From an uncultured virus (IMG/VR IMGVR_UViG_3300034520_000374) (Duplodnaviria > Heunggongvirae > Uroviricota > Caudoviricetes): a stretch of 64,000 nt of DNA. Where the stretch lies: IMG/VR virus record IMGVR_UViG_3300034520_000374; one strand, 5' to 3'. A program made the translations under genes and the position numbers. Below the pieces are notes generated by a model. The model made no database searches, was not told the DNA's origin, and saw nothing but the letters and a program-made list of their open reading frames with translations. Of this stretch, positions 2,219 to 26,871 are shown piece after piece (the first letter of the stretch is position 1; each line of letters opens with the position of its first letter).

Positions 2219-3862
2219 ATGCCTAAAAAGTATGGGGATGTGCTTAGGAGGCTTGACCTCATTGAGGAAGAGTCAACGGACGTATACAAGCCGCAGAAGA
2301 TTACGCGTATAGATTCTGAGGAGCTGCTTGTATCGCCTCATATAGAAAACAGCAGTGAGGCGGAGGATGAAGGTAGAAGCCTATCAGCATTGGAAATAAT
2401 ACTTATAGTTGGGTTAATATGCCTGCTTATTCTTGCTGGATATTACGGGTATAAATTTTACAAGACATCGGCAATATTCAATCAAGCAGAGAATAAGCAG
2501 TTGCAGAGTTTACTGAATAGCGGAGTACTGATGAGTAAATCAGTGATTCCAGTAGATAATATCCTTAGCAATGCTTTGGTGTCAGCCAAGGTGGATAGTG
2601 ATGGGGACGGAATTTCAAACGCCAGGGAGATAAAGTTTGGGACATTACCATATATGTGGGACTCAGACTTAGACGGTTTGGCTGACAATATAGAGCTCGC
2701 AAACAGTGGATTAAATCCTAACGGGAGGCAGGTAAAGGATAGGGTTAAAGACATTAAGTCTTCAGGTAGGTTACCTGAAGACTTAATGTTTACAGAGGAG
2801 CTAGATAGGAGCAACATAGCAAATATCTTAGGAGTGCCTGAGGATTATATAATCAAGGCAGTGAAGGTGTACAATAGCCTTGGTTATGCAACATTAAATG
2901 GTTTCAACGGAGCAAAAACTATAGTTAAGTACATTCCAGAAATAAACAGATTCATGGTTTTGAGGTATGAGACAATAGGGGAAAGCATTAGGGTGCCGAT
3001 GACGGGAGATTATGTAGTCATAGGTTTCAGCGTCAAAGAAGGTACAGTTAGGAGAATGATTAATTGTATCGAAGGAAATTACGAAGGTATAACGAGAGAA
3101 TTTTTGGACGATGCTTATGGGGTAATTGATGTTAACCGAGTATGGGGCATTGATGGTTTCAAGACCTTAGATTTTAAGAGGAGAGGTAAGTTGCCTCTTT
3201 TAGGTGTTGTAGATAGCCTTGGGTATTCTAGCTGCATCGGGACGGCTTGGCTAGAAGGCGTGATAACAAATGGAGGTGCACCCGATGTTAACTCTTTCAA
3301 GGCAAGGCAGAAAGGGTATACGTGGGTAAAGACGGACAATTACGATTTCGATATCTGGGGAGCACGGTTGAATGAATTTGAAGGCAGTACATTAAGGCTA
3401 GGCACGAACAGGAGAATTGATGTAACGAGTCTAAAATCACCAGACGGAGATTTTGTAAGGGCTTCATTGTATTTGACTTCGCTAGCATTGGATAAAGCTT
3501 CAGAGCAAGTAGCATTAAAGCGGTTCAGTACTAGCGAGAGCGTGCCAAAAGGTATAATAAAAAGTCTACAGGACGGTAGGGTAGTTTTAGCAATCATGGC
3601 AAATGATAAGTATGTGCATGGGGTTCTTATTTATGGTCTTGGAAGTACTACCGTTGATAACGACCTGTATAACTTCTTATGTTATGATATAAGTATAGGA
3701 AAAGAGCAGGTGTTACAGGTTAAGGTAGGCAACTTGCAAGGTAGGAAATATGCATTATACAGATATGGACTAATCAGTGATTTTGATTTCGATTCCACTA
3801 GGGGTGATGTATTTTTGTTTTACAACATAAGGACGGACTTTACACTGGAGCCAATAAATTGA
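2219..3862 (+). CDS. Membrane-anchored protein with DxDxDG Ca-binding repeats and a possible C-terminal papain-like peptidase fold
   Basis: TM helix IILIVGLICLLILAGYYGY; DSDGDGISNARE and DSDLDGLADNIE repeats; SCIGTA...HGVLIYG...LCYD resembles a Cys-His-Asp triad. Confidence 0.55.
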   Translation: MPKKYGDVLRRLDLIEEESTDVYKPQKITRIDSEELLVSPHIENSSEAEDEGRSLSALEIILIVGLICLLILAGYYGYKFYKTSAIFNQAENKQLQSLLNSGVLMSKSVIPVDNILSNALVSAKVDSDGDGISNAREIKFGTLPYMWDSDLDGLADNIELANSGLNPNGRQVKDRVKDIKSSGRLPEDLMFTEELDRSNIANILGVPEDYIIKAVKVYNSLGYATLNGFNGAKTIVKYIPEINRFMVLRYETIGESIRVPMTGDYVVIGFSVKEGTVRRMINCIEGNYEGITREFLDDAYGVIDVNRVWGIDGFKTLDFKRRGKLPLLGVVDSLGYSSCIGTAWLEGVITNGGAPDVNSFKARQKGYTWVKTDNYDFDIWGARLNEFEGSTLRLGTNRRIDVTSLKSPDGDFVRASLYLTSLALDKASEQVALKRFSTSESVPKGIIKSLQDGRVVLAIMANDKYVHGVLIYGLGSTTVDNDLYNFLCYDISIGKEQVLQVKVGNLQGRKYALYRYGLISDFDFDSTRGDVFLFYNIRTDFTLEPIN

Positions 3863-3878
3863 CGGGGGTGAACTGCGA

Positions 3879-6800
3879 ATGAGGGCAGCCGTGACTAAAC
3901 TTAAAAAGTTCATAGCATTTTTAGTTATAATTAACCTATTGATTACTATGGTTCCTTGGCAAAATACCGCATACGCTGCATCGCCTGTTTACCAGGGACT
4001 AACCGTTGGTAGCAATGCAACATTAAGTTCTGATGGTTACAAGTTGAGTTCAGCAGGTTTAATTGACATAAGTGAAACCATATTTGAAGTAGGTATTTCT
4101 CGTAGTCCGAAAACAAAAGTTACTGGAACAAAAGCTAAAACAAATATAGTAGAGAACTACCAGACAGTTATGCCTGTTAACGCTAACAATACGTTGTATT
4201 TCATGACAAGTACTTTGTATAATCAGATAAAATCCAGATGGGGTAAATTTGTAGTCAGTTGGTATTCTGCTGGTACAAAAACAATGGAGTGCCGTGGTGA
4301 TGTATCGGCGCTATACAGAGTAAAGGTGCTCAAAGATTATACTTCAACCTACAAGCCTGCAGTTGCACAAGATGGAAAATATTATTCTACGTTGAAGAGT
4401 AAGTATGACCCAAACAGTATTGCCAGCCTGGGTAACGGGCAGTGGAAAAACCTGTTAGATGGTGATGGTACCAAGGGACTTGAGCTGTGGAGCTATATAC
4501 TGCAGCAGACAAGTAAGGGCGACCCAGCAGATTGGGACATCGAGCGTAGAATGAATGAATATACCAGAACTCTCGGTTGGGACTTAGACAAATATACTGA
4601 GTGGCCCGATTCGTTAAAGTGGGAAGTCAAGTTAAGGTACCTTGACTTAATGATGATGACATATGAGATGATTCCTGCAGAGGCTACTATAGCAAAGAGT
4701 GATTGGGCTGCTGCAATAGACGATTACATTACAGGGGTTGGTCTTGATTCCAAACCAGTAACCATTGTTATTACTCCTGACGTGGCTATTAACCCTGGTG
4801 ACCCATTAAATGATTCGACTGGTGCCATTATAGTAAGGACTCCAGACTTTCTGAACTATGCTGCTGGCGTTGAGGCAATGTTTTTCTCAAATACAGAAAT
4901 CTTTGTGAACCTTTTGGGGTCAGGCGAAGACGCAGTAGCATTGACGGGTTCAGTTACACCTTCGGATACAACTAGGACTTACAATAACTACACGCTGGCT
5001 GTCAAGAAGTCAATAGCAATGAGCCCTAACTTTAAGAGGATAACAGACGCTTTAGACCCGAGTAATGCTTTCTCCTGGGGCTATAGTGCCATGGCCAAGT
5101 ACCGACTGAGCACATCAGGTGGTACAGTGCGGTGGCTAACTACAACCGTGGCAGCATCATATTTAGATATTTTGCAAATACAGTATCCTAATCAGACTAC
5201 AAACATAAAGAAGACTATATCCGGTTTCCTTCTTGTGCCTGCTCCTCCTCTTGGTGCATTGTCCCTCAAGATTACTCTTAACGCTACGCCTGACAACAAG
5301 GTAATAGATTCTACAACCTTGGGGACAGTCATAAAGCTTGATGTGAAGTGCAAGGCTGACCCTGTAGTACTTTCTGCATGGCAGCCTTATATTGACGCAG
5401 CCAGAGCACAGGGAAAGACATTCAATGTCAAGCTAAGCATAACAAGAAGCTATAATCAAGGCTCTGCTACCGCAAATTATAGTCCTACGGATATAATAAG
5501 CACTGGAAGGACGCTTTCAGTAGACCAATTTGTAGAGCTTTTGAACGGTAATACAGGAATAGAAGTTATGGATGACGTATCAACATATCCTTCTAATCCG
5601 CCGAGTAAACACATTTTTGATTATACTGTTACAATGACAGCTACATTGAATAATGGGCAGTCTCCTCCACCTTCGGGTAGTGGTACAGCTTCTGATTCTG
5701 CATCAATTATTGTTGAAGACCCGAAGCTGTACATGAAGTATACATCATCTCCTGATGCATATGCAGAGCTTAAGGAAGGCAAGCCTTACAACGAGAGCTT
5801 CGACGCTATGTCGGGTGTGCCAACTACTGAGACATTATATCTTGGTGCTGGCGGTAGTGAGTTTATAGTGCAGATAAAACTTAAGTATCATACTGACGGT
5901 CAGGCTACTCGTACGTATAAAGTGCATTATGATGGCGGCGTACCTTGCGAATTTATGGATGGAGACACAGCGAAATTCCCGAATGGGCAAACACATAGCT
6001 CTTATGAGGAGCGAGACTTTGTTTCTGGTAGTCGGTCTGGTTGCGGGAACTATGCTACTCCACCACCTCCAAAACCGAAGACATATTCATGGACGGCAGC
6101 AAGTGACGGTATAACTCGTACTGTAACTGAGCATTATCAACTTATTCCTAATACATGGACAGACCATTATTATGAGACACGTACGGATAGTGAGGGTAAT
6201 ACGTATCAAGTTCATGTTCCATCTAAATGCACTAGTCACTGGGAGTACTATTATAAATATTGGGTAAATGAGCATGAAATATGTGGACCATGCTGTCAGC
6301 ACGTCTTACCGGATGTATACGATACCTGGAAGCAGACGATAACGTTTGATTATCTCGAGATAGTAGATGTGCACGTTTGGAAGATAGACCAAGCTTCCAT
6401 TAACGGGATGGAGGAAATTGTAGGCAACAATACAAATAGCACTGACATTTTGGCACAAAATGGGGATGTAACTGTTAAAGCAAAGATTGTTAAAGGTGAC
6501 CCGAACATATTCTACAACATTGCAGCATTAACAAACCCGTCCAATCCGAATACAAGTTCAGGTGGACGGTTAAGATACTCCGTTGAGCCTCAGCAGCATG
6601 ACGATGTAGTTTATAAAATGGGCCCTCGTACGAATAAGTGTGATGGTGAAGGTGCAACTGCAGCTGGTAATGTAAGACCTAATGGTGGCCAGGGTCATGT
6701 GCATCCTTGGGCAACTGGAATTATCTATGATAACAGAGGATTCCCGAATGAGATGGACTATCATCGCCAGAAAACTTCCACTAAGACCGATTACAGTAAT

Positions 6801-9800
6801 ATAGCCGACGCTAAGGATACTCAGACTACCGAGTGGAAGCAGTTTGATACATTCAGGAAAACTTTGAACACAGCAACGGTAGTCAGCGACATGTTGATTC
6901 TACAGACATCCTCTGGAGACCAGAGCGTCATATATTTTGAGAAGAAGTCTAACACAGTAAGATGTGACCAGAACTTCGATAAGGTAACAGCTACGAAGGA
7001 AGACATGTGGGATAACAACCCACTTAGCGCAGCTAAGTGGACGGACAAACAAATCAATATAGGCTCTTATAATGGTAAGTGGGACCAGCCAACACAGAAG
7101 TATGAAGGAACCGGGAATAAAGCTCAAATACACACAGTGTTTGATTCAGCTCCTGGAGAAAAGGACCCAGCGAGTGTTTCTACAACTTATAAAGCAGCTT
7201 ATAAGTATCTGACAAGACCCGCAAGACCTGCACAGCTTTTCTTGTATAAAGACGGTGTAAAACAGAATATAGACAACGCTAACAAGTCCTATATTACAGG
7301 AGAGGCAGAGGTATTCTGGAAGAACATTCTGAACTACCCATCGGCAGACACAGCAATATACGATACTTCTTATAAGGCACTATATGGGGCTAACGGGTAC
7401 GTGCAAAAAGCTCCTTACTCACCTAATCACGGTAAGGTAAACGATATAGTTGTGCATGACCCTGTATCTACGGAAGATGCAGTAGTCGTAGGTTTGGAAG
7501 CTTCGAGAGACCAGCGAAGCACTTTACCAGCTGGTTCAGCAGATGATACTATAAATGAAGCCAATAGATTAAAGGTATGTCCGAGAGACCCAGCACTGTG
7601 CGAATTCAGGGTTCTCAACTGCACATACTTTAAGGATGTGCTTTTAGCTTACTTCGACTTTGAAAATGGTGCAGTGAACCAGGTAACAGGACAGACATAC
7701 ACTTTGCCTTCCGGGTTCACCATCGAGAATGTCAACAGGTTCGGAACAGGAAAGAGTTTATCAGCGAAAGGCGTAAGGTGGTCAATACCGTTTGCCGATT
7801 TGTACAATTCGGCGGCTGGTTTGACTAAAGGCTTGCAGTATAATCCTGGGCTTCCGATTTATGTAGAGGCAGATTACTATATACCTGTGCCAAGCGGCAC
7901 AGGTACGATGCTGGCGAGCTTCTACAGGTATGACATGTACCTGCCTGCTGGAAGTGTTAACCCAACGTGGAACACCGGTCACGGTTGGGAGCGCCGGGCA
8001 AACACAGATATAACCAATAAGAACTTAAAGATAGGCATGCAGTTCGACATGTCTAATCTTGATAGAAGTAAGCTATTCATCAACGGTACAGAGTTTACCA
8101 ATTATACGAGAATAAATAACTCCGATTTAATCACAGCTGACCTGGTAGGCGACAAGATAAATATTGGAAGTTGGAATGTCAGCGATAGGTACCCAGCAAA
8201 CTTCTATCTTGACAACCTAAAGATTATAAGGAAGGCAGGAACAACAAATCACAACGAGACTTGCTACAAGTCGTTTATGTTCCATCCAGATGGTCTGAAC
8301 GCACACGTTCACACGGCAAGCTGCGTGAACAGCAAGAGTGCGGATATTATAGCATCGTTATTGCAGGGTAAAGTTGTTGATGGCAGTACCGGCAAGCAGG
8401 ATTTTGGTTACACTGGAACAGTGCAATCCTTTACAGCTCCTGCAACAGGAACATATACACTTGAGGTTTGGGGCGCAGAAGGTGGTAAAGGTTATGCAGG
8501 GGCCCCAGGTGGTAAAGGTGGCTATGCAAAGGGAGCGGTCCAGTTACAAAAGGGACAGACAGTATACATTTATGTTGGAGGTAAGCCTACCGAAGTATAC
8601 GGCGATAGCGGTAACGCAGGTGGCTGGAACGGTGGAGGTAAAGGTTCATCATACTACGGCTCCGGCGCATTTGGAGGTGGTGGCGGTGGCGCTACTGACA
8701 TAAGAACACAGCGTGCTGCTTCCGATACTGACTGGTCGTCAACACTGAATAGCAGAATTATAGTTGCTGGTGGTGGCGGCGGAGGTGGCCACTATGGAAA
8801 ATCTAACTATATCGGAGGATACGGTGGTGGTACGTCTGGTGGTTCAGCTGGAGGTTCTGGAGCAACTCAAACAAGTGGTTATGCTCTTGGTCAAGGACAG
8901 TCATCAAATTACTCAGGGCATGATTTAGGTGCTGGTGGCGGTGGATATTATGGTGGTTATGCTTCAACGACTCGGGATGCAGGCGGTGGCGGTGGTTCCG
9001 GCTACATCGGTGGCGTTCAGAATGGTCAGCTTATAGCAGGTAACGCTTCAATGCCAGCTCCAGGTGGCGGCACCGAAACTGGGCATTCAGGGAATGGATA
9101 CGCACGCATAACATGGGATATACCTGGGGTACAGGCAGTAGACTGGGACGCCATAAAGACTTTACTTGGGCCAGCTTTCAATGCAGTATTTAATCCGCAA
9201 GTGCTTTACAACATGACATTTGGCGATGGTTCACTCAAAGGGTTCAGGGCACTGTATAACTGCACCCTATCTGTCAGCGGTGGACAGATGATTTTTAATA
9301 TAACTGGCTCAGACCCGCAGAGCGAGCTGCCTGTTAATAATATAGAGGCTCCGGCAGTCCAGCAGATTAGGATTACATTTGATAATAACACCGGTGGCAC
9401 TGTGGGTCAGTTGTTCTACAAGGGTGCTACTGGTAGTTATACTGAAGCAAACAGTGTCAAGTGGAGCATGACCGCTAACAAAGCCGGTCAAGTCGTAACA
9501 CTTGACATGACAAAAGCTACAGGCTGGACAGGAGACATCAAGAGCCTTAGGTTCGATTTCTCAGACGCATCATCAGGTCAAGTTAAGATAACAAAAATAG
9601 AGTTTATAGGGTTTGGTTCGGCTTCTGGCGGTACGGGTATGAGCGGTACTTGGACATTTGGTTACACCGGTGCACGCCAGACATGGTCTGCACCAGGTAC
9701 CGGTAGGTACCTCTTGGAAGTCTGGGGTGCAGAAGGTGGTGCCGATAACGCCGCAGGAGGTAAAGGTGGTTACGCTAAAGGTGAAATTAATTTAACTTCT

Positions 9801-12800
9801 GGGCAAACGCTTTATATCTTTGTAGGCGGCAAGGGTTCTGATAGTGGTGGTCATAACGGTGGATGGAACGGTGGCGGATACGCTTACGGTCGTGGTGGCG
9901 GTGGGGGTGGTATGACCTTCATCTCCACTTCGTCAGCTGCTACAGCTGCTCCGAGTAACCAGGCAGTAAATGGTGGTTCATGGAATGACAGTGGCGTAAT
10001 CATCGTGGCCGGCGGCGGTGGCGGTGCGGGTGGTAGCTCTGGTGGTTATGGTGGTTATGGTGGCGGAACTACTGGAGGAACCGGTGGTGATGGCTACGGT
10101 TCACCTGGGACTGGTGGTACACAGACATCTGGCGGTGCTGGTGGTTCTAACTACGGTACTAGCGGTGGCCATGGCTATGGTGGTAGCAATACAGCTGGCT
10201 CATCCTCTGGCGGAGGCGGAGGCGGTGGCGGCTGGTACGGCGGTGGTGGCGGTGGTAACGACTACACCAGATATAATGATAATGATGACTCCGGTGGTGG
10301 TGGCGGTTCCAGCTACATCGGTGGTGTACAGAATGGTCAAATAATAGCAGGTAACGCATCAATGCCAGCGCCTGGCGGAGGTACTGAAACAGGTCATAGC
10401 GGTAACGGATACGCTAAGATAACAGGTTTAGTCTCCGCACTAACAATAACCTATACACCTCCGTTTAACAGCGGTTCTAGCGGTAGTCAGATATTTAATT
10501 ACACCGGGTCATATCAGACTTTCACAGCACCTGTAAGTGGCACATACACCTTTGAGGTGTGGGGAGCCCAGGGTGGCGGAAATACAGACCCTTCACAAGG
10601 TTCTAGAGGTGGTAAAGGTGGTTACTCAAGAGGCGAATATTACTTAAATGCCGGACAGACAATATACATTTATGTAGGTGGTCAAGGTAGGGAAGGTTAC
10701 CTGTCACCAAGTGGTGGTTGGAATGGCGGTGGTAATGGTAGCGGTACAAGTTCGTGCTATGGTTACGGCGGTGGCGGTGCTACTGATATAAGGGTTGGCG
10801 GTCAGGCTTTAAGTAACCGTGTCATTGTAGCCGGTGGCGGTGGCGGTGCCGATGACACAGGAACAGCCGCTGGTACGCCAGGGGGTACCAATGACGGGTC
10901 CGGTGGATACGGTGGCGGTTTAACAGGAGGAAATGCTCTAAAAGATGGTGTCGAAGCAGCGGGTACTGGTGCTACTCAGACTAGTGGTTATGCATTAGGA
11001 CAGGGTCAGGCATCTGGAACGACATCAGACTCCGGTGGTGGCGGTGGTGGTTACTACGGAGGTTACGCTACCAGTTTCTATAACGGTGGTGGCGGTGGCG
11101 GTTCCGGTTATATAGGAGGAGTACAGAATGGTATTACGATTCCTGGTAACCAGACAATGCCGTCGCCATCTGGTGGAACCGAAGTAGGTCATTCCGGTAA
11201 CGGTTGTGCCAAGATTACATGGTGTCCTATAGATAAGACAGCAATACTAAATGCATTACAAGCTAACTATGCATTGTTGCCAGAGATGATAAATGGTGCT
11301 CTTGTAACAGAATGGGTGGATATCACGAATTGGAATGACCCAACGCCTGGTTCGACTCCTGGTTCTAAGTACGCAAACAGTGCATCGGAGTTCAGTCAGA
11401 TATTTAGTTACAGCAATGGAGCAGTTTATAGGGGAGTAAGTATAATAACAAGTGCGATTGCTTGGCACAGTGCGGGAAAATTCCCGTATGAGAAGCCGTA
11501 TTATCTGCCTGACAGCCATTATGGTTGGAGAGCATACGGAGAAATTTATATACCGTCAGATGGTATGTATACTTTCGGTATAGACTCCGATGATGCTGGT
11601 GACATACTCATAGATGGCAATGTAGTAGTATCGTGGTACGGTGCCCATGGTGTAGCTGGGTCGGGAGGTACTCCATCATTTACGCATTATGCATCGGTTA
11701 ACTTAACTGCTGGTTGGCATAAGTTCGAAGCACGGATGCAGGAGTGGGAAGGCGAGGATGGTATCGCAGTAGGTTGGAAGAAACCTGGAGATACAGCGTT
11801 CAGCATTATACCTGCATCGCAATTCAGGGTATACAACCCGGTGTTTACATGCGGTGGATTGCCGTTGAATACCCATATATGCAACGCTAACTGTCATGAA
11901 GAATCAGTGTTGATGTGTTCAGAGCCACACCACAACGGATTGCACTATGATGGTTCCAATGACATATGCTGGGACGCCTGCAACAACGATGCAAACCATG
12001 CGTTCTACAAGCCGAAAGTATTTACACCTGGTGGTCAGGAAATCCCGAACGGTAAGTTTATCAACATAGACTGGCCGTTCAGGGTTTACTTCCCGAATAT
12101 AGGCGACTTCTATCAGGGAGGTCGGCTCGGATGGTCTTCACTGACCACTACAAGAGGTAAAGGCTTTGTAGATAACATGGACACAACCAAGTGGACCAGA
12201 GCTAAGCGTATTAAGTTCGGGTTCAATGTCATTTTCACTAACCCGATTACCGGTGAGAAAACACTATATCGTGCAGGAGAATGGATAGATTTACCTGTAG
12301 CTACCCAAATAGATCGAATAGAATATGACGTGGACGGCAATCCAGTAACGATTTACAAGCAAGGTACCGGAATATCGTACTACGATTTCTACTGCGTGTT
12401 GGCAAATAGAGAAGCCAAGAGTGCATTGATTGAATACGAAGTAGAGGCTATAAATTGCCCGGGCGAGAACGATAATAAGATTAACGAGACTAACAGGAAG
12501 AGATATTCAGATTTCACGGCATTGCATGGAGGGTATAGAACATCCTATATTGACGTTGTAGGTAGAATAGGTAACTTCGTAATAGCGGACACAGACGATT
12601 ACAGGTTCAGTAACTTCTTCAAGACACCTGTATCATCCGACAAATGGATAGTAGAGGGTATAGTAAAAGAAGTTTATCCGGATGTTCCTAACCTGTATAT
12701 CGGTTGGAAGAAAGATATAAGGGGCGTTGACGTATCCTCTGCTACACATTGGTTTGACACCTATGGTACCCAAAAGTGGTTGGATAAGGCTCCTGTGCAA

Positions 12801-16512: not shown

Positions 16513-17103
16513 GTGCGTATAGTAGCTTTAACAGGAACAGTAGATAAGCGTATGCTAGTGTACCCAATTGCAAGGGCCCTTAGCATAGAAAGCAATGTGT
16601 GCATAGTATCAGATAATGGTGCATACAGAAGGTTGTTCAGTGAACGTGGGAACGAGGGCATGCTGGGCAGGGTAAAGATAGTGGTAGATATTTATGAAGA
16701 TAGCATGCTACCAAGGCTGGACGAGGTGGGGATTGGGTTTGATTACTTATTGGTTGACTCTAGTTTTGAGGTTCCTACAGATTCTGATTATATAATATAC
16801 TGCAGGGGTGTAAATAGGTCGTTATATCCTGATGATGAACTTAAGAAAATAGAGGATAAGCCTAATATTGAGGTCATCATTTCACCTGAGCCACCAGAAG
16901 AAAAAGGAGTGTTAGTTGTTAGGGTTGACGAGTCGGTATGCAGTTACGTTATGAAAATAGAGGAGAACAAGCAACTAATGGGTATTACCAATAAAAATTA
17001 TAACAAGCTACTGACAAAAATCTTCAGTCAAGCATTAGGAATACAAGAGTCAAGTTTATTCGAGTTATTATCCAGAAAAGATGGCATAGCATCACGAAAA
17101 TAA
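16513..17103 (+). CDS. Hypothetical protein in Tad-like operon, possibly a degenerate P-loop NTPase fold
   Basis: IVALTGTVDKR start, VCIVSD and FDYLLVD strands recall the ParA/MinD fold without a Walker A GKT. Confidence 0.45.
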   Translation: MRIVALTGTVDKRMLVYPIARALSIESNVCIVSDNGAYRRLFSERGNEGMLGRVKIVVDIYEDSMLPRLDEVGIGFDYLLVDSSFEVPTDSDYIIYCRGVNRSLYPDDELKKIEDKPNIEVIISPEPPEEKGVLVVRVDESVCSYVMKIEENKQLMGITNKNYNKLLTKIFSQALGIQESSLFELLSRKDGIASRK

Positions 17104-17115
17104 GGTGGTGAGATT

Positions 17116-17922
17116 GTGAATATTTCTGTTATATCACCCGGGTTTAGAAATGCTGGTAACACTACATTAGCTATATTGACTGGACTAGAGTTGGCACAGC
17201 GTGGGAAGCAGGTCTGCCTGACACATGTTAATTTCCTGTCATCTTCATTCTTCAATTACATGAACCTGTTGTTATATGAGGATAGGACGACTACTCCTTC
17301 GCAGATTGTCAAGCTAATAAGGGAAGGTGCATTGAATCCAGACGATATACACGATTATTGCAGGCAGGTAACAGATAACTTGGAGGTATTCAGCAATAAC
17401 TCTATGGCTCTAACCTCTGAAGATATGAAGTTAATGCTGGACTATATTTGCACGACATTCCCACACGAGTTTAAGGTGTTGGATGTAGACATAGATACGA
17501 CTAACTTAAGCGCGAATAAGCATGTACAGGAAGTATTAAAGTATTCTGACGCAGTGATTATTAATCTCAACCCATCAGTAGAGCAGCTCAACTACTTTAG
17601 GAGTAACGGTAAAGAGCTTTTAGATATCATAGGAGGACGCAAGGTTATTATTGTTATAAACAAGTATAACGATATTGCGTATTCGTTGAAGGAGATAATC
17701 GAGATAGCCGGTATAAAGAAGCTTGGTAAGAACCTCGTGGTCTTAAAATACAACCCGTGGATAGAGTGGGGAACAAACCACGGTAAAATAGCGGAAGTTT
17801 ACAAGAAGATAGCTGTAAAAGATAGGCGTGTAATTGATGTTTCCAAAGACCTGTCTTCTTTGGGAAGCAAGATTATGAAGATAAGGACGCTTTTGGATAA
17901 GAAGGCAGGTGGGAAGAAGTGA
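17116..17922 (+). CDS. ParA/MinD-like (CpaE/TadZ-like) protein with deviant Walker A
   Basis: ISVISPGFRNAGNTTLAILTGLELAQRGKQVCL; FKVLDVD; IIVINKY. Confidence 0.7.
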   Translation: MNISVISPGFRNAGNTTLAILTGLELAQRGKQVCLTHVNFLSSSFFNYMNLLLYEDRTTTPSQIVKLIREGALNPDDIHDYCRQVTDNLEVFSNNSMALTSEDMKLMLDYICTTFPHEFKVLDVDIDTTNLSANKHVQEVLKYSDAVIINLNPSVEQLNYFRSNGKELLDIIGGRKVIIVINKYNDIAYSLKEIIEIAGIKKLGKNLVVLKYNPWIEWGTNHGKIAEVYKKIAVKDRRVIDVSKDLSSLGSKIMKIRTLLDKKAGGKK

Positions 17923-19994
17923 TAAATACCATACTAATCTTTGCAAGCTTAGCAATACTAGCCGTTATAGTTGTAGCACTGTATTTTTCTTCCAAGAACC
18001 AAAAGGCGAGGAAAATAGAGGAAGATATCAATAGCTTTGAGAAAGTATTGGAAATTGTCAAAAATGAGATTGTCGACATTCTAAAGACTGACTATTCATT
18101 AAGCCTGTCTGATGAAGAATTCGAGAGGATGTATAAACGCAAGGCGAGGCTCAACGACGCATTAAAGAACTGTGTGTTTGGCATCGACTCAGCCAAGATT
18201 ATCGTTATAGACCTTATCAGGAGCATATTAGTTGAGAGGGTTCCACCAGAAAGGGTATCTTGGTTGCTCGGGCTACAGGAAGGCATGGAGCCTTCTAATC
18301 ACGTGAAGTTCGAGATTATAATGTATAAATACAAGAAGAGATACGGTAAGAGGGCGTTGGCGGAGTGGATTGAGAAGTATGACCTTGCAAGAGAAAAGCC
18401 TGCAACGAATCAGGACAGACAGCAGGACGTAGCTTACTATATAACCGAAGAAGAACTTACCGCAACATACAGGAAGGAGAACTTCGAGTTAAGTATAGAT
18501 GAGCAGTACGATGTGCTTGCAACGTTAGTTTATCAACAGTATAAAGGGTTTGGTATTTTAGATACTTTACGTGAAATGGATATCAACGGGTTTAACTGTG
18601 GTACCAGCGGTTCCATATTATCGGTGGCAAACAAGTTAGCGCAGGGGAAATTCAAGGCTAACAAATCGGTTTGGTTGTATTACCAAGGTAAATATATCCA
18701 TCTTAGGTTCATGGACTTTGGGACAGAAGAGGAGCTTAAAAGAATTATACAGTTACTCATCAGGTATGGCAATCCTGGTCCTCTAACAGCTAAAAGAGGC
18801 TACCTTGTAAATACAATGTATGACAAGTCTCGTATCCTTGCATTGAGGCCACCAGCATCGGAATACTGGGCGGTGTTTGTTCGTAAATTTACTCTATCGG
18901 ATGTGTCTCCTGAGGCATTAATAATCAAGCCATACACGAAACGTGGAGAATTACCAGTCCAGTTAATTGAGTTCTTAATGAGAGGTCAGATAACCTGCGC
19001 GGTAACAGGTAGGCAAGGTTCTGGTAAAACGACATTGATGAGTTCAATAATTCGTTATATAGACCCTCGTTACACAATCCGTGTTCTGGAAATGGCACCT
19101 GAGTTGTATTTAAGGGAACTTTATCCTACGCGTAACATCCTATCGGTGCAGGAAACAGCTACAGTAACGGCTGCTGAACTGCAGGACGCATTAAAGAAAT
19201 CAGACGCAGCGGTATCAATCGTCGGTGAGGTTGCTACTGACGCAGTAGCAGCTCGTATGATTCAGATGGGTCAAGTAGCTTCACTCTTTACGATATTCTC
19301 GCACCACGCAAATACTGCGAAGGACTTGGTGCTTGCATTGAGAAACTCGCTTGTAAACTCTGGCGCATTCAACAACATGCAAGTAGCCGAGAAGCAGGTT
19401 CTCGATGTCGTTAAAGTAGACATTCACTTGGATTATACACCTGATGGTAAGCGTTACATCGAAAGGATTACCGAAATAGTCCCACTGCCTGAAGGTGTCC
19501 CATATCCTGAATATGACCCGAATGACCCTGTGAACTCAATAAACCGCATAACAAAGGAGTACTATCAGAGGACAACCGATAGAATAGGGTTTTATACTCA
19601 TGATATATTAAGGTATGACCTTGAGACTCATACTTATTATACAGTAGACAGGTTTAGTCAAGAGCTAGAACAGCGAATCAAGCGTAATCTGGGTAAGGAA
19701 CTTAGGGTACTGTTCGAGTACTTTATGTTAAAAGAGTGGGACTTAAGTAATAGCAATATACCTGAAGGCGAAAGGGCACAAAAAGAGAAAGAGCTTAAGG
19801 AGCTTGAGGCTTATGTCGAGAAGTACCAGAGGAATGTAAGTTCAACTCCTGTTGATTTGATTTCTAATATTATAGAGTCTAAGGACGGAAGGACTATAGA
19901 GGAAGAGGCTCAGGAAAAAGCCCTATGGGCAGAGGGATATAAGGATGGCGTCGAACTACGGGACGAGTTTACACTGAGTCTGTTTGATGAGTAG
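17919..19994 (+). CDS. cpaF: CpaF/TadA-family (VirB11-like) pilus assembly ATPase with N-terminal TM
   Basis: Walker A GRQGSGKTT, VLEMAPEL, SIVGEV, FSHHANT His box, GKRYIERITEI. Confidence 0.85.
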   Translation: MINTILIFASLAILAVIVVALYFSSKNQKARKIEEDINSFEKVLEIVKNEIVDILKTDYSLSLSDEEFERMYKRKARLNDALKNCVFGIDSAKIIVIDLIRSILVERVPPERVSWLLGLQEGMEPSNHVKFEIIMYKYKKRYGKRALAEWIEKYDLAREKPATNQDRQQDVAYYITEEELTATYRKENFELSIDEQYDVLATLVYQQYKGFGILDTLREMDINGFNCGTSGSILSVANKLAQGKFKANKSVWLYYQGKYIHLRFMDFGTEEELKRIIQLLIRYGNPGPLTAKRGYLVNTMYDKSRILALRPPASEYWAVFVRKFTLSDVSPEALIIKPYTKRGELPVQLIEFLMRGQITCAVTGRQGSGKTTLMSSIIRYIDPRYTIRVLEMAPELYLRELYPTRNILSVQETATVTAAELQDALKKSDAAVSIVGEVATDAVAARMIQMGQVASLFTIFSHHANTAKDLVLALRNSLVNSGAFNNMQVAEKQVLDVVKVDIHLDYTPDGKRYIERITEIVPLPEGVPYPEYDPNDPVNSINRITKEYYQRTTDRIGFYTHDILRYDLETHTYYTVDRFSQELEQRIKRNLGKELRVLFEYFMLKEWDLSNSNIPEGERAQKEKELKELEAYVEKYQRNVSSTPVDLISNIIESKDGRTIEEEAQEKALWAEGYKDGVELRDEFTLSLFDE

Positions 19995-20003: not shown

Positions 20004-21983
20004 GTGGTGATAGGCGTGCCAATAGGTTTAATTGTCGTTATGGGTGCTGTGGTTGCCGCTGGTGTGTTTATAATATTAACAGGCGGTAAACCCAAGCACA
20101 AGCAGGAGGCTAAGCAGGCAAAGACTTATATAAAGTTGTTTGAGTTTCTGTCTTCTTTCTTCCTGACGCAGAAGAAAATAGCAAAGATTTATAATCGGGT
20201 AGCCATGCTGTCTATTTATAGTAGGCGAGAAATAGCAGCTTTAGCCGCGAAATATTGGTTGCTGTCTACAGGTGTGCAGCTTGGGCTCATAGTAGGTGCA
20301 ATTACTCTGTTTCATGATGTTATATCGGTGCTGATTTGCATTATGTTTGCAGTATTAGTTGGGGATATACTTGTAGATAAGCAGCTTGACTCCTCGGTGA
20401 TAAAGGTAAACAAGGCATTAAAAAGTTTTATATCAGACTTGAGGCAGGAATACTTAAAGTATGGTTCAGTGCCTGAAGCAATGGCCGAGGCAATTGCAAG
20501 GTGCAATACAATTATTAGACGACCAATGGAGGAGATACATTCAATACTTACAACAGGCAATGGTGAGCTGAGGTTACAAGAATTTTATGAATCGACGCCA
20601 TTTAGAGCGATTCAGACATTGGCTGGTGTTTGCTATAACATTCATAACTATGGTGATAGTAAGGACGACAGCGGGCAGTCAAATTTTATTCAGGCATTGA
20701 CTATCATGGTGAACGATATTAACTTCGAGCTCGAGATGATGACTAAGCAGAAGGCTAAGTTCGGGTACATTGAGTACTTGCCGTTCGTACCGGTATTCGG
20801 TATGCCATTAATAGAGACCTATTTTAAGTCAATCATGCCTGGTACGGCTTTAATATACAACGGTATTTTTGGATACCTTGCAAGAATGGTGATACTGCTA
20901 AGCGCAATCATATCTTACAAGGTCATATCAGGGATGGCTAGTATAAATGCGTTCAAGGAAGACGACAGAGACCCTTGGGTAATAAAGCTACTTTCATACA
21001 AGAAATTTGCCAAGTTTATTGACGATATAACACCAAAGGGAAAGAAAAAGGAACGGTTAGAAAACAAGTTAAAGTCCGTATTGTCTCGCATGGATGTTAG
21101 GCAGTTTTACACAAAAAAAGTTGTATCTGCTGTTGGAGCATTTCTGGTGTTTTTGCTTGTTATAAGTTGTGCATTGTCTTTAGGTAGGGACTTTATTAAA
21201 ACCAGCACGCAGCAGTTATCTCTGATTGCTACAAATGAAATGGAAAAATACTCACCTGAGTTAATTCGAAAAATGGATGAGCAATACCTATATTCAAATA
21301 AGCAGTGGTCGGATGATGAGCTGAAATCATTGGTGAAGTCTTACATGTCAGGGCTGTCAGATTTGCAGGTATTGGACCAGGTGAAAAGGCTAAAGGACAA
21401 GAAGGAGAGCCTGGAGAAAGCATATTTCCACTGGTGGTTTATATGGGTATGTTTTTTAGTCGGAGTGGCTGGTTGGTTTGCACCTGACATTTCATTAATA
21501 CTTAGGAGATATATAGTTGACACAGAAGGGGATACGGACTTCTTGCAGTTGCAGACATTGATGAGTATTTTGATGTTCATGAATATAGATACCCTTGAGG
21601 CTTTAAGGCAGTTATATCAGCATTCAAGGATTCATAAGGACATGTTGCTGTACTGCTATCATAATTTCCCGTCCAATCCTGAAAAGGAATTAACAAGGCT
21701 GCAGTCAAAAACGCCTATCATTGAGTTCAAGAGGTTCATAGGGAAATTAATGCTGACTATTAATGACTTGTCATTGAGGGAAGCATTCAGTGACCTTGTA
21801 ATTGAAAGAGATTACATTCAGAAGATTCGTGAGATCACAGCTAACTCTGCACTAGACAAGAAGAGAGCTTTGTGCGGACCTTTATCAATGGTGCCTTTAG
21901 GTCTTACAATAATTGGTGAGCTTATCATACCATTAGGTATGTTAGGCATGAATGAATTTATGAAGGCATTACATTCCATGTAA
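20004..21983 (+). CDS. Polytopic membrane platform protein, TadB/TadC-like (possibly fused)
   Basis: Multiple TM segments alternating with two helical cytoplasmic regions; directly after cpaF. Confidence 0.6.
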   Translation: MVIGVPIGLIVVMGAVVAAGVFIILTGGKPKHKQEAKQAKTYIKLFEFLSSFFLTQKKIAKIYNRVAMLSIYSRREIAALAAKYWLLSTGVQLGLIVGAITLFHDVISVLICIMFAVLVGDILVDKQLDSSVIKVNKALKSFISDLRQEYLKYGSVPEAMAEAIARCNTIIRRPMEEIHSILTTGNGELRLQEFYESTPFRAIQTLAGVCYNIHNYGDSKDDSGQSNFIQALTIMVNDINFELEMMTKQKAKFGYIEYLPFVPVFGMPLIETYFKSIMPGTALIYNGIFGYLARMVILLSAIISYKVISGMASINAFKEDDRDPWVIKLLSYKKFAKFIDDITPKGKKKERLENKLKSVLSRMDVRQFYTKKVVSAVGAFLVFLLVISCALSLGRDFIKTSTQQLSLIATNEMEKYSPELIRKMDEQYLYSNKQWSDDELKSLVKSYMSGLSDLQVLDQVKRLKDKKESLEKAYFHWWFIWVCFLVGVAGWFAPDISLILRRYIVDTEGDTDFLQLQTLMSILMFMNIDTLEALRQLYQHSRIHKDMLLYCYHNFPSNPEKELTRLQSKTPIIEFKRFIGKLMLTINDLSLREAFSDLVIERDYIQKIREITANSALDKKRALCGPLSMVPLGLTIIGELIIPLGMLGMNEFMKALHSM

Positions 21984-22117: not shown

Positions 22118-22780
22118 ATGGAAAAGGAAATCAGCTCAGGTACTATGTTGGGTATAGTGCTTATTGCACTGGCAGCTATCATCGGAATCGGTTTCGGTAT
22201 CTTCTCAATTGCGAAAGGTACCGCAAACGAAGGTGTTGTTAACGTCCAAGACAACCTTGCTCAGGTAAACGCTTCGTCTTTCACAGATTATGACCAGAAA
22301 GTTGTCACCGGAACTCAGGTTGTTAGTGCTTACAACAACTTCGCGGGTAAGTCTTATGCAATCCTGATTGCAACGCAAGCCTACATTGATAACTCTTCTG
22401 AAGCTACAATTCCTGGATTGTCTGCAGCTCCGAAAGTTGATGCATACTCTGGTGATCCTGGAACAACCGCTACTGTAATGAACGCTACTACATCGAATGG
22501 TACCACAGTACCTCTTAAGTTCTTGAACTACAACGCTGTGTTGTCCAATGGTGGTAGTGGCAATGCCAAAATTTACTTCAAAGATGGTGTGTATAAGGCT
22601 ATCAGCGGATTTAACCTCGACACCAGTGGTAAGATTATCTTCAATACAGTTATCAGCAATCTGAGCAAGTCTGGCACTGTTGAGTATGTTCCTTCAAGTG
22701 GAAGGTTCCAAGCTAACCTGATTAAGGATATGTCCGGTACAATTATGGGCATTGCGTTCCAGCAACTCACAGTTAAGTAA
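22118..22780 (+). CDS. Putative major pilin-like protein
   Basis: N-terminal hydrophobic helix, DYDQKVVTGTQV motif, C-terminal FQANLIKD..G.I.GIAFQQ; strong RBS; high-expression-like codons; own terminator. Confidence 0.6.
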   Translation: MEKEISSGTMLGIVLIALAAIIGIGFGIFSIAKGTANEGVVNVQDNLAQVNASSFTDYDQKVVTGTQVVSAYNNFAGKSYAILIATQAYIDNSSEATIPGLSAAPKVDAYSGDPGTTATVMNATTSNGTTVPLKFLNYNAVLSNGGSGNAKIYFKDGVYKAISGFNLDTSGKIIFNTVISNLSKSGTVEYVPSSGRFQANLIKDMSGTIMGIAFQQLTVK

Positions 22781-23576: not shown

Positions 23577-23598
23577 TAAATGGTAGGTGGTATGAGAC

Positions 23599-24081
23599 AT
23601 GATGGAGGAAATAAGGCAGACAGTCTATATAGCTGTGTCTGCAATCTTGCTATCTATAGTACTAACATTTGCATCTGTGGTAATACGTATAGAAAGCGAT
23701 TTTGCTACAATACGGAATGATGAGCTAGCCGCCAATCAAGCACTCCAGCAAGCTCACAAGTTTAACAAGTACGATAACAAGATAATCTCTGGGGACGATG
23801 TAATTGAGCTCATAAGGATGTATTACGATGGCGGTATTGAGATTTATATTAATACACCTGACGGAACCAGTGGACCTATAAGAATAAATTCTCAGACAGT
23901 TAGAGCTAATCCATCGTTAGTTAGCCTTTCATACCTGCAGTCAAAGTTTACGCCTTCTAAGAAGTTTTTAGCTCAGATAGTGTATAACGCAGTAGACCCG
24001 GCCACTGTTACATCACCTATGATTAATAAACCTGTAGGGTCAGAAGTAACAGGCATTTCGCTGAGGTGGATTAGCAATTAG
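23599..24081 (+). CDS. Minor pilin-like protein
   Basis: N-terminal TM; FNKYDNKIISGDDV motif shared with the major pilin. Confidence 0.55.
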   Translation: MMEEIRQTVYIAVSAILLSIVLTFASVVIRIESDFATIRNDELAANQALQQAHKFNKYDNKIISGDDVIELIRMYYDGGIEIYINTPDGTSGPIRINSQTVRANPSLVSLSYLQSKFTPSKKFLAQIVYNAVDPATVTSPMINKPVGSEVTGISLRWISN

Positions 24082-24094
24082 TGGGGTGGTAAGC

Positions 24095-24526
24095 TTGGAT
24101 GATATAATAAAGGAATATATAAAGATAATCATGGATTTAGTGCTAGCCTCGTTGCTTCTGACTGTCATAGTCATTTTCAATACTTTGTCGCACAGCGTCG
24201 CAAATGACATGGAGCTACAGCGGGAGGCAGTACAGCAAATTGAGGAATACAATAAAGTATATCCCTACGACAATAAGGAGGTTGTGGGGAGCGACATAAT
24301 TGAAGCAGTGGTCAAATTTGCTAGGTATTATAACTTCGAAATAGTTATAGGCAGCACTATCTATAAAATAGACAGTAACACGGAAAAGGCTTTAGGCAGC
24401 AAGATTTGGACAGAGGAATATATAGTAAATAGCGTGCTGCAGAGCGATGTGGCATCTAAATTTCAAGCCACTCTTATAAAAGATAATTACGGGTACATCA
24501 GCGGTATAAAATTTGTCAAGAAGTGA
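24095..24526 (+). CDS. Minor pilin-like protein (TTG 24095; ORF track start 24086)
   Basis: N-terminal TM; YPYDNKEVVGSDI and FQATLIKDNYGYISGIKF motifs shared with the major pilin. Confidence 0.6.
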   Translation: MDDIIKEYIKIIMDLVLASLLLTVIVIFNTLSHSVANDMELQREAVQQIEEYNKVYPYDNKEVVGSDIIEAVVKFARYYNFEIVIGSTIYKIDSNTEKALGSKIWTEEYIVNSVLQSDVASKFQATLIKDNYGYISGIKFVKK

Positions 24527-24538
24527 GGTGGTGTATAC

Positions 24539-24967
24539 ATGGAAAGAGAGGTTTCTACAGCAGCTGGCCTGGCAGTAACAATGATTGCCATATCGGCATT
24601 ATTGTGGATAGTCATATTTACGGTTAAAGTTGGCAATGACGTAAAGGTAAATGCTGTAGAAAGTGGGGTAAACCTGCAGACAACTATTAAAACAGGGCAA
24701 GTTGAGAGTATGACGGTAGAAAACATAGTGATTCCAGCTGCAGCTGCGTATCATTTCTTCGAGACAAACTATCGGGTTATTGAGTCTTCTCAGTGTAAGA
24801 TTTGCGGCAAAACATACGGTGCTGGTCAGGCAGGGAAATGTTTACTGGAGCACTTAACAGGAAAAGTATCACTGCAGATTATAAAGGTAGGAGACGAGAG
24901 GTACAAAGTCATAATACACAAGCCTGATTGCACTTGGGAATCAGGTACTTGTACTTGTGGTAGGTAG
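24539..24967 (+). CDS. Minor pilin-like protein with Cys-rich C-terminus
   Basis: MEREVSTAAGLAVTMIAISALL resembles the major pilin N-terminus; CKIC, C and CTWESGTCTC. Confidence 0.5.
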   Translation: MEREVSTAAGLAVTMIAISALLWIVIFTVKVGNDVKVNAVESGVNLQTTIKTGQVESMTVENIVIPAAAAYHFFETNYRVIESSQCKICGKTYGAGQAGKCLLEHLTGKVSLQIIKVGDERYKVIIHKPDCTWESGTCTCGR

Positions 24968-24976
24968 GTGATAGGC

Positions 24977-25414
24977 ATGACAGAAGGAATACTTGACGTT
25001 TTAATAGGAGTAATAGTACTTGGAATAGTGGTTTCTATGGCTTTCGGCTCAGTAATACCTTTAGTGGAGACTAGTTACAGCGATAAGGTTTCTCAAATGT
25101 ACGATAAGACAGTATCAAAAACGTTCGGTGAAGATGTGTCACAGTTAAATAATTATGACGGGTACATGGATAAATTGGAGGCTGTTCTTGTAACACAGGT
25201 GCTCGATTATGGTATGCCTGAGCCTAAAGTGATTAAGGTGGGAAGCACAACGGTTAATATTACTTCGACATACCGCGAGGAGCTTATAGGATACGCTAAT
25301 ATAATTTGGAACAGCATAAAAGGAGATTCCAGCAGTACAAGGTACAAATACGTTTATAATTTTGGAAGCGACACAACAAAAGGTGATGAGGCTTACGAAA
25401 TAGTGCGTAAATGA
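24977..25414 (+). CDS. Minor pilin-like single-TM protein (ORF track start 24968)
   Basis: N-terminal TM; NNYDG motif; position in pilin cluster. Confidence 0.45.
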   Translation: MTEGILDVLIGVIVLGIVVSMAFGSVIPLVETSYSDKVSQMYDKTVSKTFGEDVSQLNNYDGYMDKLEAVLVTQVLDYGMPEPKVIKVGSTTVNITSTYREELIGYANIIWNSIKGDSSSTRYKYVYNFGSDTTKGDEAYEIVRK

Positions 25415-25431
25415 GAGGGTAGGTGAGATAG

Positions 25432-25881
25432 ATGAGCGACTTTCTTAATAAAGTTGTAACGTTAATATTAATTTTTATCATGCTTGTTTTGGCCCCAATG
25501 CTCATATCTTACATGATGACAGACATGAGGGCACAGAGGCTCGTTCTTAACGAGGTATCTATGTTTATAGACAAAGTAACAGATAAAGGTACTATTACGC
25601 AGTCCGATTTAGACCAACTGTATTTGTCTGTAAACTCTCACGGAAAAACATTGGACGTAACAGTAAAAAGGTTTGTTAGAGTAGCATCGTTGGACCAGAG
25701 TACAGGGCAGGTAAGGACTTTGTATTTTGCAGCTGACGATATAAGTGCATTGAATCCAGGTGATATAGTTCAGGTCACCGTCAGGGAAGTAGGCAGGTCT
25801 CCTTTAAGGTCATTGACATACAGCATATTAAAAATAGACATAGGTAAATTTGAGTTTTCATTGGCAGGGGCGGTGAGGTAA
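25432..25881 (+). CDS. Minor pilin or TadE-like single-TM protein
   Basis: N-terminal TM, then a helix and LNPGDIVQVTV beta strand; cluster context. Confidence 0.45.
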   Translation: MSDFLNKVVTLILIFIMLVLAPMLISYMMTDMRAQRLVLNEVSMFIDKVTDKGTITQSDLDQLYLSVNSHGKTLDVTVKRFVRVASLDQSTGQVRTLYFAADDISALNPGDIVQVTVREVGRSPLRSLTYSILKIDIGKFEFSLAGAVR

Positions 25882-26871
25882 TTGAAGGTATGGACATCAG
25901 TTTTTAATTTTATAGCCATAATGATTTTAATGATGCTCATTGTAGTATATTATAATACAGCAACTGTGATTGACCGTGAGTTTCAGGAAGAAAGACTTAG
26001 GTTAGCTGTGGACTACGCAGCAGAAGCCGCTTTTCAGACAAGTTTAACTGTAGAAGACCTAGGTATGGAGTATTTGGACATGAGCAATGTCACGGTTAAC
26101 CCTGGTAATTGTCTCGACATATTCAAGTCTGTGCTTTGCTTAAACTACAATATGTCCGCGAGCGAGGAGAATCTAGCACATTTAGATAACTATATACCAA
26201 CTGGAGTTCTGTGCGGGAACAATGGGTATTATATATTAACAATGTCAGAGGATGATACTACACCTACAAATGGCGTGAAGGGTGGAGAGTATTGCCTTAG
26301 GTGGAGCGTGAAAAAGCCGTACACAGTAAGAATAGGAAATACATACTATGCCGTAGATATACGTAGGGGTTCCTGGGTATCTGTACGAGATAATGGAGGA
26401 AACCTAGAGGTTAGCGAGGGTACTTCGTTACCGTATGGCATAGATAAAGATGGCGTGTTGCGACTGGTAAATACAAGGATTGCACAGGATATGTTGTATG
26501 AAATACAGCGTAGAAATTTTAACAAAGAGGCATGGGAATACAAATTCTACCTGCCACCAGTTCAGACAACATCAGGTGTAAACCCAATAACTGGGCCTTC
26601 GTTATTAATATTCGTTGAGGGAGTAGACTTTGCATCTCCGGTTAAGGTGGATGCAGTAAGCGTAGCAGGGTTCAAGACAATAAGGAAGAAGGTAGTTATC
26701 GGGTACAAAGACCCATCAACAGGTAGAAAGTACTACGCGTATGAAGGTCAACTACCAAGCTCATTATTACCGTATGCTGATAACTATTATAATGACGTTG
26801 AGGACGCAGCCAAAGCTGGATATGCTCCGAACTATGACTTTATACAGAAAAAAGTTAATTACGATGAATAA
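25882..26871 (+). CDS. TadG-like or tip pseudopilin-like single-TM protein
   Basis: N-terminal TM then RLRLAVDYAAEAA, resembling the Tad pseudopilin LQxAxDxAAxAA helix. Confidence 0.5.
   Translation: MKVWTSVFNFIAIMILMMLIVVYYNTATVIDREFQEERLRLAVDYAAEAAFQTSLTVEDLGMEYLDMSNVTVNPGNCLDIFKSVLCLNYNMSASEENLAHLDNYIPTGVLCGNNGYYILTMSEDDTTPTNGVKGGEYCLRWSVKKPYTVRIGNTYYAVDIRRGSWVSVRDNGGNLEVSEGTSLPYGIDKDGVLRLVNTRIAQDMLYEIQRRNFNKEAWEYKFYLPPVQTTSGVNPITGPSLLIFVEGVDFASPVKVDAVSVAGFKTIRKKVVIGYKDPSTGRKYYAYEGQLPSSLLPYADNYYNDVEDAAKAGYAPNYDFIQKKVNYDE

Follow-up and report, generated by a model that had tools for sequence, protein, structure and literature searches.

A divergent Tad-type machine with putatively leaderless pilin-like proteins on a pXO16-like element

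We examined a gene block at 2219..26871 (+ strand) of a 64-kb stretch of DNA, here called the window, that is filed as the uncultured virus record IMGVR_UViG_3300034520_000374 in IMG/VR. Judged from its sequence, the block is a divergent, element-encoded Tad (type IVc) machine, and its ATPase, platform and CpaB-like protein are identified. The explanation that best covers the whole, to which we give a probability of about 0.5, is a leaderless, Tad-derived filament on a pXO16-like element that serves for attachment in mating. Its parts differ in strength: the proteins very probably form a filament, the pilins are probably left uncleaved, and a role of the machine in mating is only slightly favoured over its absence. 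A preliminary description, made from the letters of the sequence, had proposed a "divergent, element-encoded surface filament" on a "phage-like or megaplasmid replicon". The Tad-like filament system is upheld by the CpaF, TadB and CpaB homologies and by pilin-shaped models, and the megaplasmid by a pXO16-like PolA and by co-orientation of the genes; the phage-like character is not, since no virion genes were found among 57 window proteins.

The 17 open reading frames (ORFs) of the block were all recovered with the coordinates and the + strand first given for them (Table 1), and the gaps between them are mostly 0-22 nt. Domain calls, a lipobox and transmembrane (TM) helices likewise bear out the M23 peptidase, the lipoprotein, the SAF/CpaB protein, the polytopic platform and the eight single-TM proteins of the preliminary description; the latter, which follow the platform and carry one N-terminal TM helix each, are named P1-P8 here. 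Repeats in the window are confined to glycine-rich domains and the P1/P2 duplication, and the window holds no tRNA. A metagenome scan with the ATPase gave 98 confirmed loci, of which 80 were kept. Where there was room downstream of the ATPase (43 loci), the platform was present in 43/43, a P1/P3 pilin in 42/43, P7 in 41/43 and P8 in 37/43; where there was room upstream, SAF and a ParA-like gene were each present in 59/61. Because the operon order is kept across these loci, it is not due to chance. The nearest loci also keep the giant-M23-lipoprotein genes upstream and a ligase fragment downstream.

The ATPase has a T2SSE/TadA domain (TIGR03819, 2e-8), an N-terminal TM anchor, and intact, conserved Walker A, Asp box, Walker B and His box motifs. 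A profile of seven ATPase sequences compared with PDB matched Caulobacter CpaF at 3e-16, archaeal GspE/FlaI at 1e-5 and VirB11 at 4e-5, so that the CpaF assignment stands, with the membrane anchor added to it. A grouping of the ATPase with VirB11 of a nearby type IV secretion system (T4SS), which the preliminary description had named as speaking against its reading, was looked for and is contradicted by the same profile values; nor does the ATPase lie within a virB operon, since no vir genes were detected in the window. A quick version of the ATPase tree (42 rows, the careful search being unfinished, and loci with an off-pattern Walker A or a duplicate segment, including most small-genome loci, being dropped) separated the family on a long branch from canonical monoderm CpaF (SH-aLRT 99) and joined chromosomal loci with named plasmids (100) in a subclade that does not include the window. 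The platform gave no T2SSF Pfam match in 47 members. Its N-terminal half matched an alignment of four TadB sequences, two of which carry T2SSF, with a probability of 95% (E 2e-8), and its C-terminal half matched the TadB alignment at E 1e-3, better than 15/15 column-shuffled controls (E 0.09-0.87). The platform profile also matches unfused TadB/TadC, and by sequence the 659-aa protein is a predicted TadB-TadC fusion. The SAF protein matched PF08666 at 1e-4 and TIGR03177 at 5e-7, the latter below cut-off. Two ParA-like proteins had been proposed; this holds for the 268-aa protein by its match to MinD, with the Lys of Walker A replaced by Asn; for the 196-aa protein, hhalign gave a match to the 268-aa family of only 38% over 31 columns. 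A TadZ fold is reported for protein 928 of the TANB77 pilus cluster (PMC11680825), and the 196-aa protein is probably a degenerate TadZ/ParA. Profile searches of PDB with P7, the platform and the 196-aa protein gave no relative for any of the three.

By architecture, the machine belongs to the type of that pilus cluster, in which genes 927-938 of the order TANB77 are described as CpaB, TadZ, CpaE, a TM-anchored TadA, a fused TadC/TadB and seven pilin-like proteins (PMC11680825). Order and sizes are the same in both and both end in a conserved pair of single-TM proteins, a likeness drawn from architecture and gene lengths. Profiles from the window match a cluster, L148, whose gene lengths match Table 1 for TANB77 (Kim et al. 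2024), and the P8 profile matches the last gene of L148 at 2e-15. The last TANB77 pilin is reported to activate dendritic cells via TLR4, and the terms "prepilin" and "cleav" are absent from the main text on the cluster, which is called exclusive to the order and is chromosomal and single-copy in 122/129 species (PMC11680825). The window, in contrast, is a plasmid-like element with an ATPase of another subclade, and it adds the giant protein, the M23 enzyme and the lipoprotein. With the canonical Tad/Flp systems (Caulobacter Cpa, Aggregatibacter Tad) the block shares a CpaF-type ATPase, TadB/TadC, CpaB/RcpC, TadZ/CpaE and a candidate large minor pilin of the tip type; unlike them it lacks Flp, TadV and the class III motif, its candidate shaft pilin has a 160-residue head, its ATPase is membrane-anchored and its platform genes are fused.

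P1 has 453 homologues with a near-invariant N-terminus, and its gene is flanked by a Shine-Dalgarno sequence (SD) upstream and a terminator-like hairpin downstream. The AF2 model of P1 (pLDDT 87) has a continuous helix at 2-56 and a beta-rich head of ~160 residues, and the P7 head model (pLDDT 92.7) has a helix packed on a sheet. Failure of the small TM proteins to model as pilins was another outcome named in advance as unfavourable, and P1 and P7 instead gave a long helix with a beta-rich head. For the P7 head, 12/50 VIA rows were type IV pilins or pseudopilins (Z 4.5-5.9), among them the EpsI/J complex 2ret_B (Z 5.9, rmsd 3.0, 94 aligned); VIA with full-length P1 returned generic helices only. 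The modelled single-TM proteins thus appear pilin-shaped, with middling fold matches that are supportive, not decisive. Atlas searches matched P4 to unnamed Bacillota clusters only and gave for P8 a low DUF5411 lead only (0.77). Two detached genes at 38365-39683 have a P1-like head, the first with a basic N-terminus and the second (39099) a lipoprotein with a lipobox in its translation; they are possibly entry-exclusion or pilus-capping factors. The pilin heads likely face outward, since a P1 head is carried by a lipoprotein and a glycine-rich adhesin domain is joined to one P7 homologue in a fusion protein.

N-termini were compared in a set of 383 genes lying between platform and P8 at 61 loci; 39 were dropped for want of an N-terminal TM helix or of a start codon before it, 310 were distinct and 270 were assigned to families. 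The bacterial class III motif occurred in 0/270 assigned pilins and 2/40 unassigned ones, and the same motif flagged three canonical prepilins in control loci of one genome (G001). The chosen start was the first possible in-frame start codon in 212/270, so that no longer leader is encoded there. Asp or Glu stood at positions 2-6 in 188/215 P1-P7 versus 9/55 P8, and P8 had Lys or Arg at position 2-3 in 55/55; the control proteins (SAF, lipoprotein, M23) had basic N-termini. In P7, Pro was at position 22, counted from Met1, in 43/54, a residue which we take to be the mark of mature type IVa pilins. No Flp with G|xxxxEY was found among ORFs of >=35 aa in 1-32000, and domain scans found no TadV prepilin peptidase in the 64-kb window, as the preliminary description had remarked; the missing Flp is explained if the eight single-TM proteins are the pilins. 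PF01478 prepilin peptidase was found in 0/5 element records (four complete plasmids and the relative G005) and in 12/14 of the control. Because the tests for Flp, TadV and class III were negative, the block is not a canonical Tad member. A sister chromosomal Tad-like system (L188:8030-17629) has unfused TadB/TadC and four leaderless single-TM proteins that match the P3, P7 and P8 profiles. Prepilins are said to carry "invariably" a class III signal peptide; Glu5 pairs with the N-terminal amine of the next subunit, and the filament tip is capped by a subunit without Glu5 (PMC10191384). The acidic P1-P7 and the basic P8 would be analogous to this Glu5 rule at the tip, and the pattern fits. In the literature searched, which did not extend to subscription papers, we found no report of leaderless type IV pilins or of a plasmid-borne cluster of such type.

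The element itself, whose contig is listed at 191 kb, resembles, from its sequence, a pXO16-type megaplasmid of a Gram-positive, anaerobic host of Clostridia type. Among the window proteins, PolA has its best plasmid matches in pXO16 records (33%, 1e-103), and only four match pXO16 at all (PolA, a ligase-BRCT fragment, a primase Zn finger and an HNH protein). Plasmid pXO16, with its co-oriented genes, was formerly thought phage-like and is conjugative (PMC6199540). It shares the PolA-bearing, co-oriented backbone with the window; it lacks this Tad block and works with an aggregation system. In common with the window, the 185-kb relative G005 has the block, giant protein, M23, ligase fragment, primase and PolA; it also encodes a tail-lysozyme, M23 and FtsK, together with a VirB4-like gene that has a relative on pXO16. 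The Hodor megaplasmids were considered as a match and rejected, there being no tad, pili or pilin wording in the text that describes them (PMC12934698).

Beyond this element, 34 Bacillota plasmids stood out in a search with the ATPase (E<=3e-59), every other record scoring far lower. The synteny check suggested in the preliminary description was run on four of these (pTHECO01, pBsph, pCY360 and pPPM1a), and all four carry SAF-X-ParA-CpaF-platform followed by four small TM genes, as against eight in the window; their ATPases are 30-39% identical, the genes are annotated hypothetical, and in 3/4 the block is followed by a giant protein whose C-terminal domain is the same. A VirB4 search gave 431 matches, and the 60 of them that were listed include at least 21 of the 34 plasmids. 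pBsph is reported to be conjugative, with a T4SS (PMC13239906), and its VirB4 block is far from its Tad block, so that the lack of a T4SS in 64 kb is no objection to a mating role. On pCY360, VirD4, PrgI and VirB4 come directly after the pilins. The 27 plasmids matched by the platform are typed "non-mobilizable", though pBsph transfers. IMG/VR scans with the pilin alignment and PolA gave no matches. Among sampled Clostridia (401 genomes, 399 scored) the ATPase clade was found in 31/399; the regions of 16/31 were opened and, among the regions listed, many show the operon amid housekeeping genes. In G004 the locus, read by eye, adjoins an integrase-like gene and chromosomal genes. The core cluster is therefore of a known kind, and its mobile distribution was not found in print within the literature searched.

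The adhesin-like nature proposed for the secreted giant protein is borne out by a signal peptide, three glycine-rich ALK/LTK domains and PA14; it also has a conserved N-terminal region and a conserved C-terminal domain (about residues 2650-3264). Homologues occur in 18/80 metagenome loci; in close loci the glycine-rich modules vary and the C-terminal domain is conserved. The profile of this domain matches DUF5704-annotated proteins downstream of the Tad block on pTHECO01, pBsph and pPPM1a (1e-15 to 1e-18), and none of the chromosomal loci fetched showed the giant gene; the giant protein is co-inherited with the machine on elements. Complex prediction for its C-terminal domain with P8 returned a score of 0.00 and no verdict. 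The M23 peptidase has HxxxD and HxH motifs in its translation, and its gene lies beside the locus in 22/80 loci at variable position; the lipoprotein lies beside SAF in 26/80. The protein at 2219, described beforehand as "membrane Ca-binding/peptidase-like", keeps its membrane helix and a weak TSP3 repeat (PF18884 below cut-off) and loses the peptidase label: the candidate catalytic Cys was rejected as unconserved, being Gly in one of two full-length homologues. A class III-like stretch in this protein was rejected on the same ground. No homologue of this protein was seen in the fetched loci.

We propose that the membrane-anchored CpaF hexamer would work through the fused TadB-TadC platform, with the CpaE/TadZ pair and CpaB positioning motor and platform, and that this machine would lift pilins from the membrane, tip to base. 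P8 would cap a tip complex with P7 and other minor pilins, and P1 (with P2) would form the shaft. The pilins may be translated as already "mature" subunits, with Met1 standing for Phe1 and Asp/Glu at 2-6 for Glu5; if these replace Phe1 and Glu5, no prepilin peptidase would be needed. The M23 enzyme would open the wall, the giant protein would supply the surface that binds the target cell, and the filament would serve conjugative transfer by attaching to recipient cells; the DNA itself would cross by a separate system of VirB4 type, encoded at another place on the element.

A number of results weigh against this leaderless mating filament. Neither the P1 nor the P7 model had a Foldseek match at E<=0.001, pita-bread folds outrank pilins for the P7 head in VIA (Z 6.3-7.5 vs <=5.9), and pilin Pfam families, including Flp/TadE, gave no match in 76 family members. 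The charges of P1-P6 are not balanced in a way that would favour N-in insertion. The window yielded no match to a T4SS, a coupling protein or a relaxase, pXO16 conjugates without this Tad block, and the cluster occurs on the chromosomes of many Clostridia, where a mating role is not required. The homologue counts are not independent, since the homologues are related. Concerning the leader, an archaeal-type K/R-G/A site occurs in 29/270 pilins overall (26/215 P1-P7), Gly or Ala follows the last charged residue in 32/42 P1 and 37/54 P3, and an A24 prepilin peptidase is encoded in 29/31 host genomes with the ATPase, so that cleavage in trans could occur. The same filament might then be built from pilins with a class III leader of 7-8 residues, cut in trans by the chromosomal enzyme of the host to leave archaeal-style pilins lacking Glu5. 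We consider this unlikely, while noting that Gly8 is near-invariant in P1 and that K-A or R-G precedes the hydrophobic run in many P3/P1. The candidate Gly/Ala site is present in only 1/54 P7 and 3/21 P6, the hydrophobic run of P8 begins at about residue 4, the supposed leader keeps one length and a conserved sequence in 120 P1 homologues, and Pro22 of P7, a position known from type IVa pilins, is in register only when Met1 is +1.

The machine could also be one for adhesion or display and have nothing to do with mating: a short endopilus or a pilus on which the giant glycine-rich/PA14 protein is displayed, so that polysaccharide, surfaces or partner cells can be bound, the element being maintained by benefit to the host. 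We give this a minor share of the probability, comparable to that of the short leader. The chromosomal, single-copy TANB77 cluster (PMC11680825) and its setting amid housekeeping genes in other Clostridia would suit such a machine, as would the giant C-terminal domain that follows the block on distant plasmids and the distance between Tad and VirB4 blocks on pBsph; against it are the absence of the giant gene from the chromosomal loci fetched, the transfer genes directly behind the pilins on pCY360, and pLS20, where an adhesin next to a similar ATPase is used for conjugation (PMC8557374). pLS20, a Gram-positive conjugative plasmid compared here by description, carries in genes 34-41 the Tie adhesin, the "VirB11" gene 37 and TM genes 38-41; its ATPase is shorter than that of the window, its platform-like genes are separate and its adhesin is of the thioester kind. 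The reading of its gene 37 as VirB11 (PMC8557374), the weak VirB11 matches, and acidic N-termini that could give N-out topology would allow the ATPase of the window to be the VirB11-like third ATPase of a Gram-positive T4SS, with the small TM proteins as channel or wall-spanning accessories. This is improbable: the CpaF score is better than that of VirB11 by 11 orders of magnitude, CpaB and TadB/TadC are Tad parts, the block occurs amid chromosomal housekeeping genes, and the P1 and P7 models appear pilin-shaped. Least probable by far is a large phage or phage-plasmid that carries the machine as lysogenic-conversion cargo. Such a replicon might be suspected from the 57 of 58 long ORFs on one strand, from the encoded PolA, NrdD/G, ThyX, UDG and Dam (along with the primase Zn finger and LPD1), and from one relative being filed in IMG/VR; that relative carries transfer genes, however, no terminase, portal, capsid or credible tail was matched among 57 window proteins, the ATPase has no close relative among 50,697 phage records, and pXO16 shares co-orientation and PolA, yet is a conjugative plasmid.

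Table 1. Features of the window and the basis of each assignment
Feature	Position	Strand	Basis
Membrane-anchored protein with TSP3-like Ca-binding repeats; lineage-restricted accessory gene	2219..3862	+	TM 55-73
3264-aa secreted adhesin-like giant protein	3879..13673	+	signal peptide, Pfam domains
Secreted M23 peptidoglycan endopeptidase	13683..14849	+	PF01551 4e-27
Lipoprotein, likely start 14983	14983..15510	+	SD, lipobox before Cys
CpaB/RcpC-like SAF protein, counterpart of TANB77 927	15526..16494	+	PF08666, TIGR03177
Cytoplasmic 196-aa protein, probable degenerate TadZ/ParA, counterpart of 928	16513..17103	+	conserved position
MinD/ParA-like CpaE/TadZ (268 aa), counterpart of 929	17116..17922	+	PDB MinD 1e-7
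TadA/CpaF traffic ATPase with N-terminal TM anchor, counterpart of 930	17919..19994	+	profiles, motifs
Predicted fused TadB-TadC platform (659 aa), counterpart of 931	20004..21983	+	alignment to TadB
P1, candidate major pilin, acidic N-terminus from Met1	22118..22780	+	homologues, AF2 model, SD
Terminator-like hairpin 3' of P1	22795..22817	+	consensus match only
P2, tandem paralogue of P1	22917..23576	+	71% identical to P1
P3, pilin-like, P1 superfamily	23599..24081	+	P1 profile E 6e-9
P4, pilin-like	24086..24526	+	P1 profile E 3e-6
P5, pilin-like, Cys-rich head	24539..24967	+	sequence, conserved position
P6, pilin-like	24977..25414	+	N-terminal TM, conserved position
P7, conserved putative minor pilin, counterpart of 937	25432..25881	+	Pro22, head model
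P8, largest pilin-like protein, candidate tip cap, counterpart of TANB77 "pilin 938"	25882..26871	+	basic N-terminus, profile match
Two detached genes with P1-like head, the second a lipoprotein	38365..39683	+	P1 profile 5e-5, 4e-5
Family A DNA polymerase (PolA), backbone context outside the machine	60512..63865	+	pXO16 matches

Further observations concern the pilin and ATPase families. P1-family pilins without a nearby machine were seen at L006:10001-10717, L007:711-1379, L008:10001-10678 and L009:10001-10678, the last three followed by an SLH-like surface protein; the ATPase was not found in two incomplete genomes (G002, G003). At two loci (L033, L044) P1 is present as three tandem paralogues, near-identical at their N-termini and variable in their heads, which suggests pilin variation. 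The P8 homologues of L155, L160 and L151 gave weak C-terminal Ada Zn-binding matches (best 0.0014), which hints that the tip may bind DNA; Cys residues are absent from P8 of the window. A second T2SSE-family ATPase lies on G005 apart from the Tad block (L104:8274-9644), and pCY360 and L074 have a second traffic ATPase upstream. In each of two RNA runs, one contig from a 95%-identical relative spanned the P1 gene, at depths of 139 and 55, compared with 2-6 for the other listed contigs; the runs were chosen by content and covered small shares of the window (0.10, 0.05), and contig depth cannot rank genes, so that these values are not counted as evidence.

Around the block, the stand-alone Zn-finger/HhH/BRCT half of an NAD-dependent DNA ligase lies right after P8 (26920-27804); it is kept 3' of P8 in close relatives and is present on pXO16 and G005. 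An HNH protein at 2-697, probably cut at the window start, has a 622-aa pXO16 homologue (1e-24) and a weak IscB-model match that covers the HNH part only. The large polyvalent protein encoded at 40679-43240 has LPD1/LPD5 domains and is of a kind usual in conjugative elements and phages, and at 57026-58454 are two adjacent proteins that look sigma-factor-like by eye, a homologue of the second (1e-22) being near the orphan pilin of L006. Encoded at 31180-32871 is a secreted protein that is transglutaminase-like and has a stalk domain (Cu amine oxidase N1); it and an MscS channel (37605-38420) appear to be cargo.

Two textbook statements become testable by these results, that prepilins "invariably" have a class III signal peptide (PMC10191384) and that Gram-positive conjugative elements form no conjugative pili (PMC8557374), and culturable models for both tests exist in pBsph/p1593, pPPM1a, pTHECO01 and pCY360. 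Leader-based pilin finders and Pfam would miss subunits of the P1-P8 type. Mobile elements from gut and bioreactor metagenomes carry relatives of the "exclusive" TANB77 pilus cluster, and this bears on the use of that cluster as a biomarker. Machines akin to the one described here are found on many conjugative plasmids whose bacterial hosts are thought to mate without pili. It is a tentative and rather doubtful extension of our reading that a type IV filament independent of prepilin peptidase may be the mating pilus of a widespread Gram-positive megaplasmid family, with relatives, including the TANB77 cluster, that became fixed on Clostridia chromosomes.

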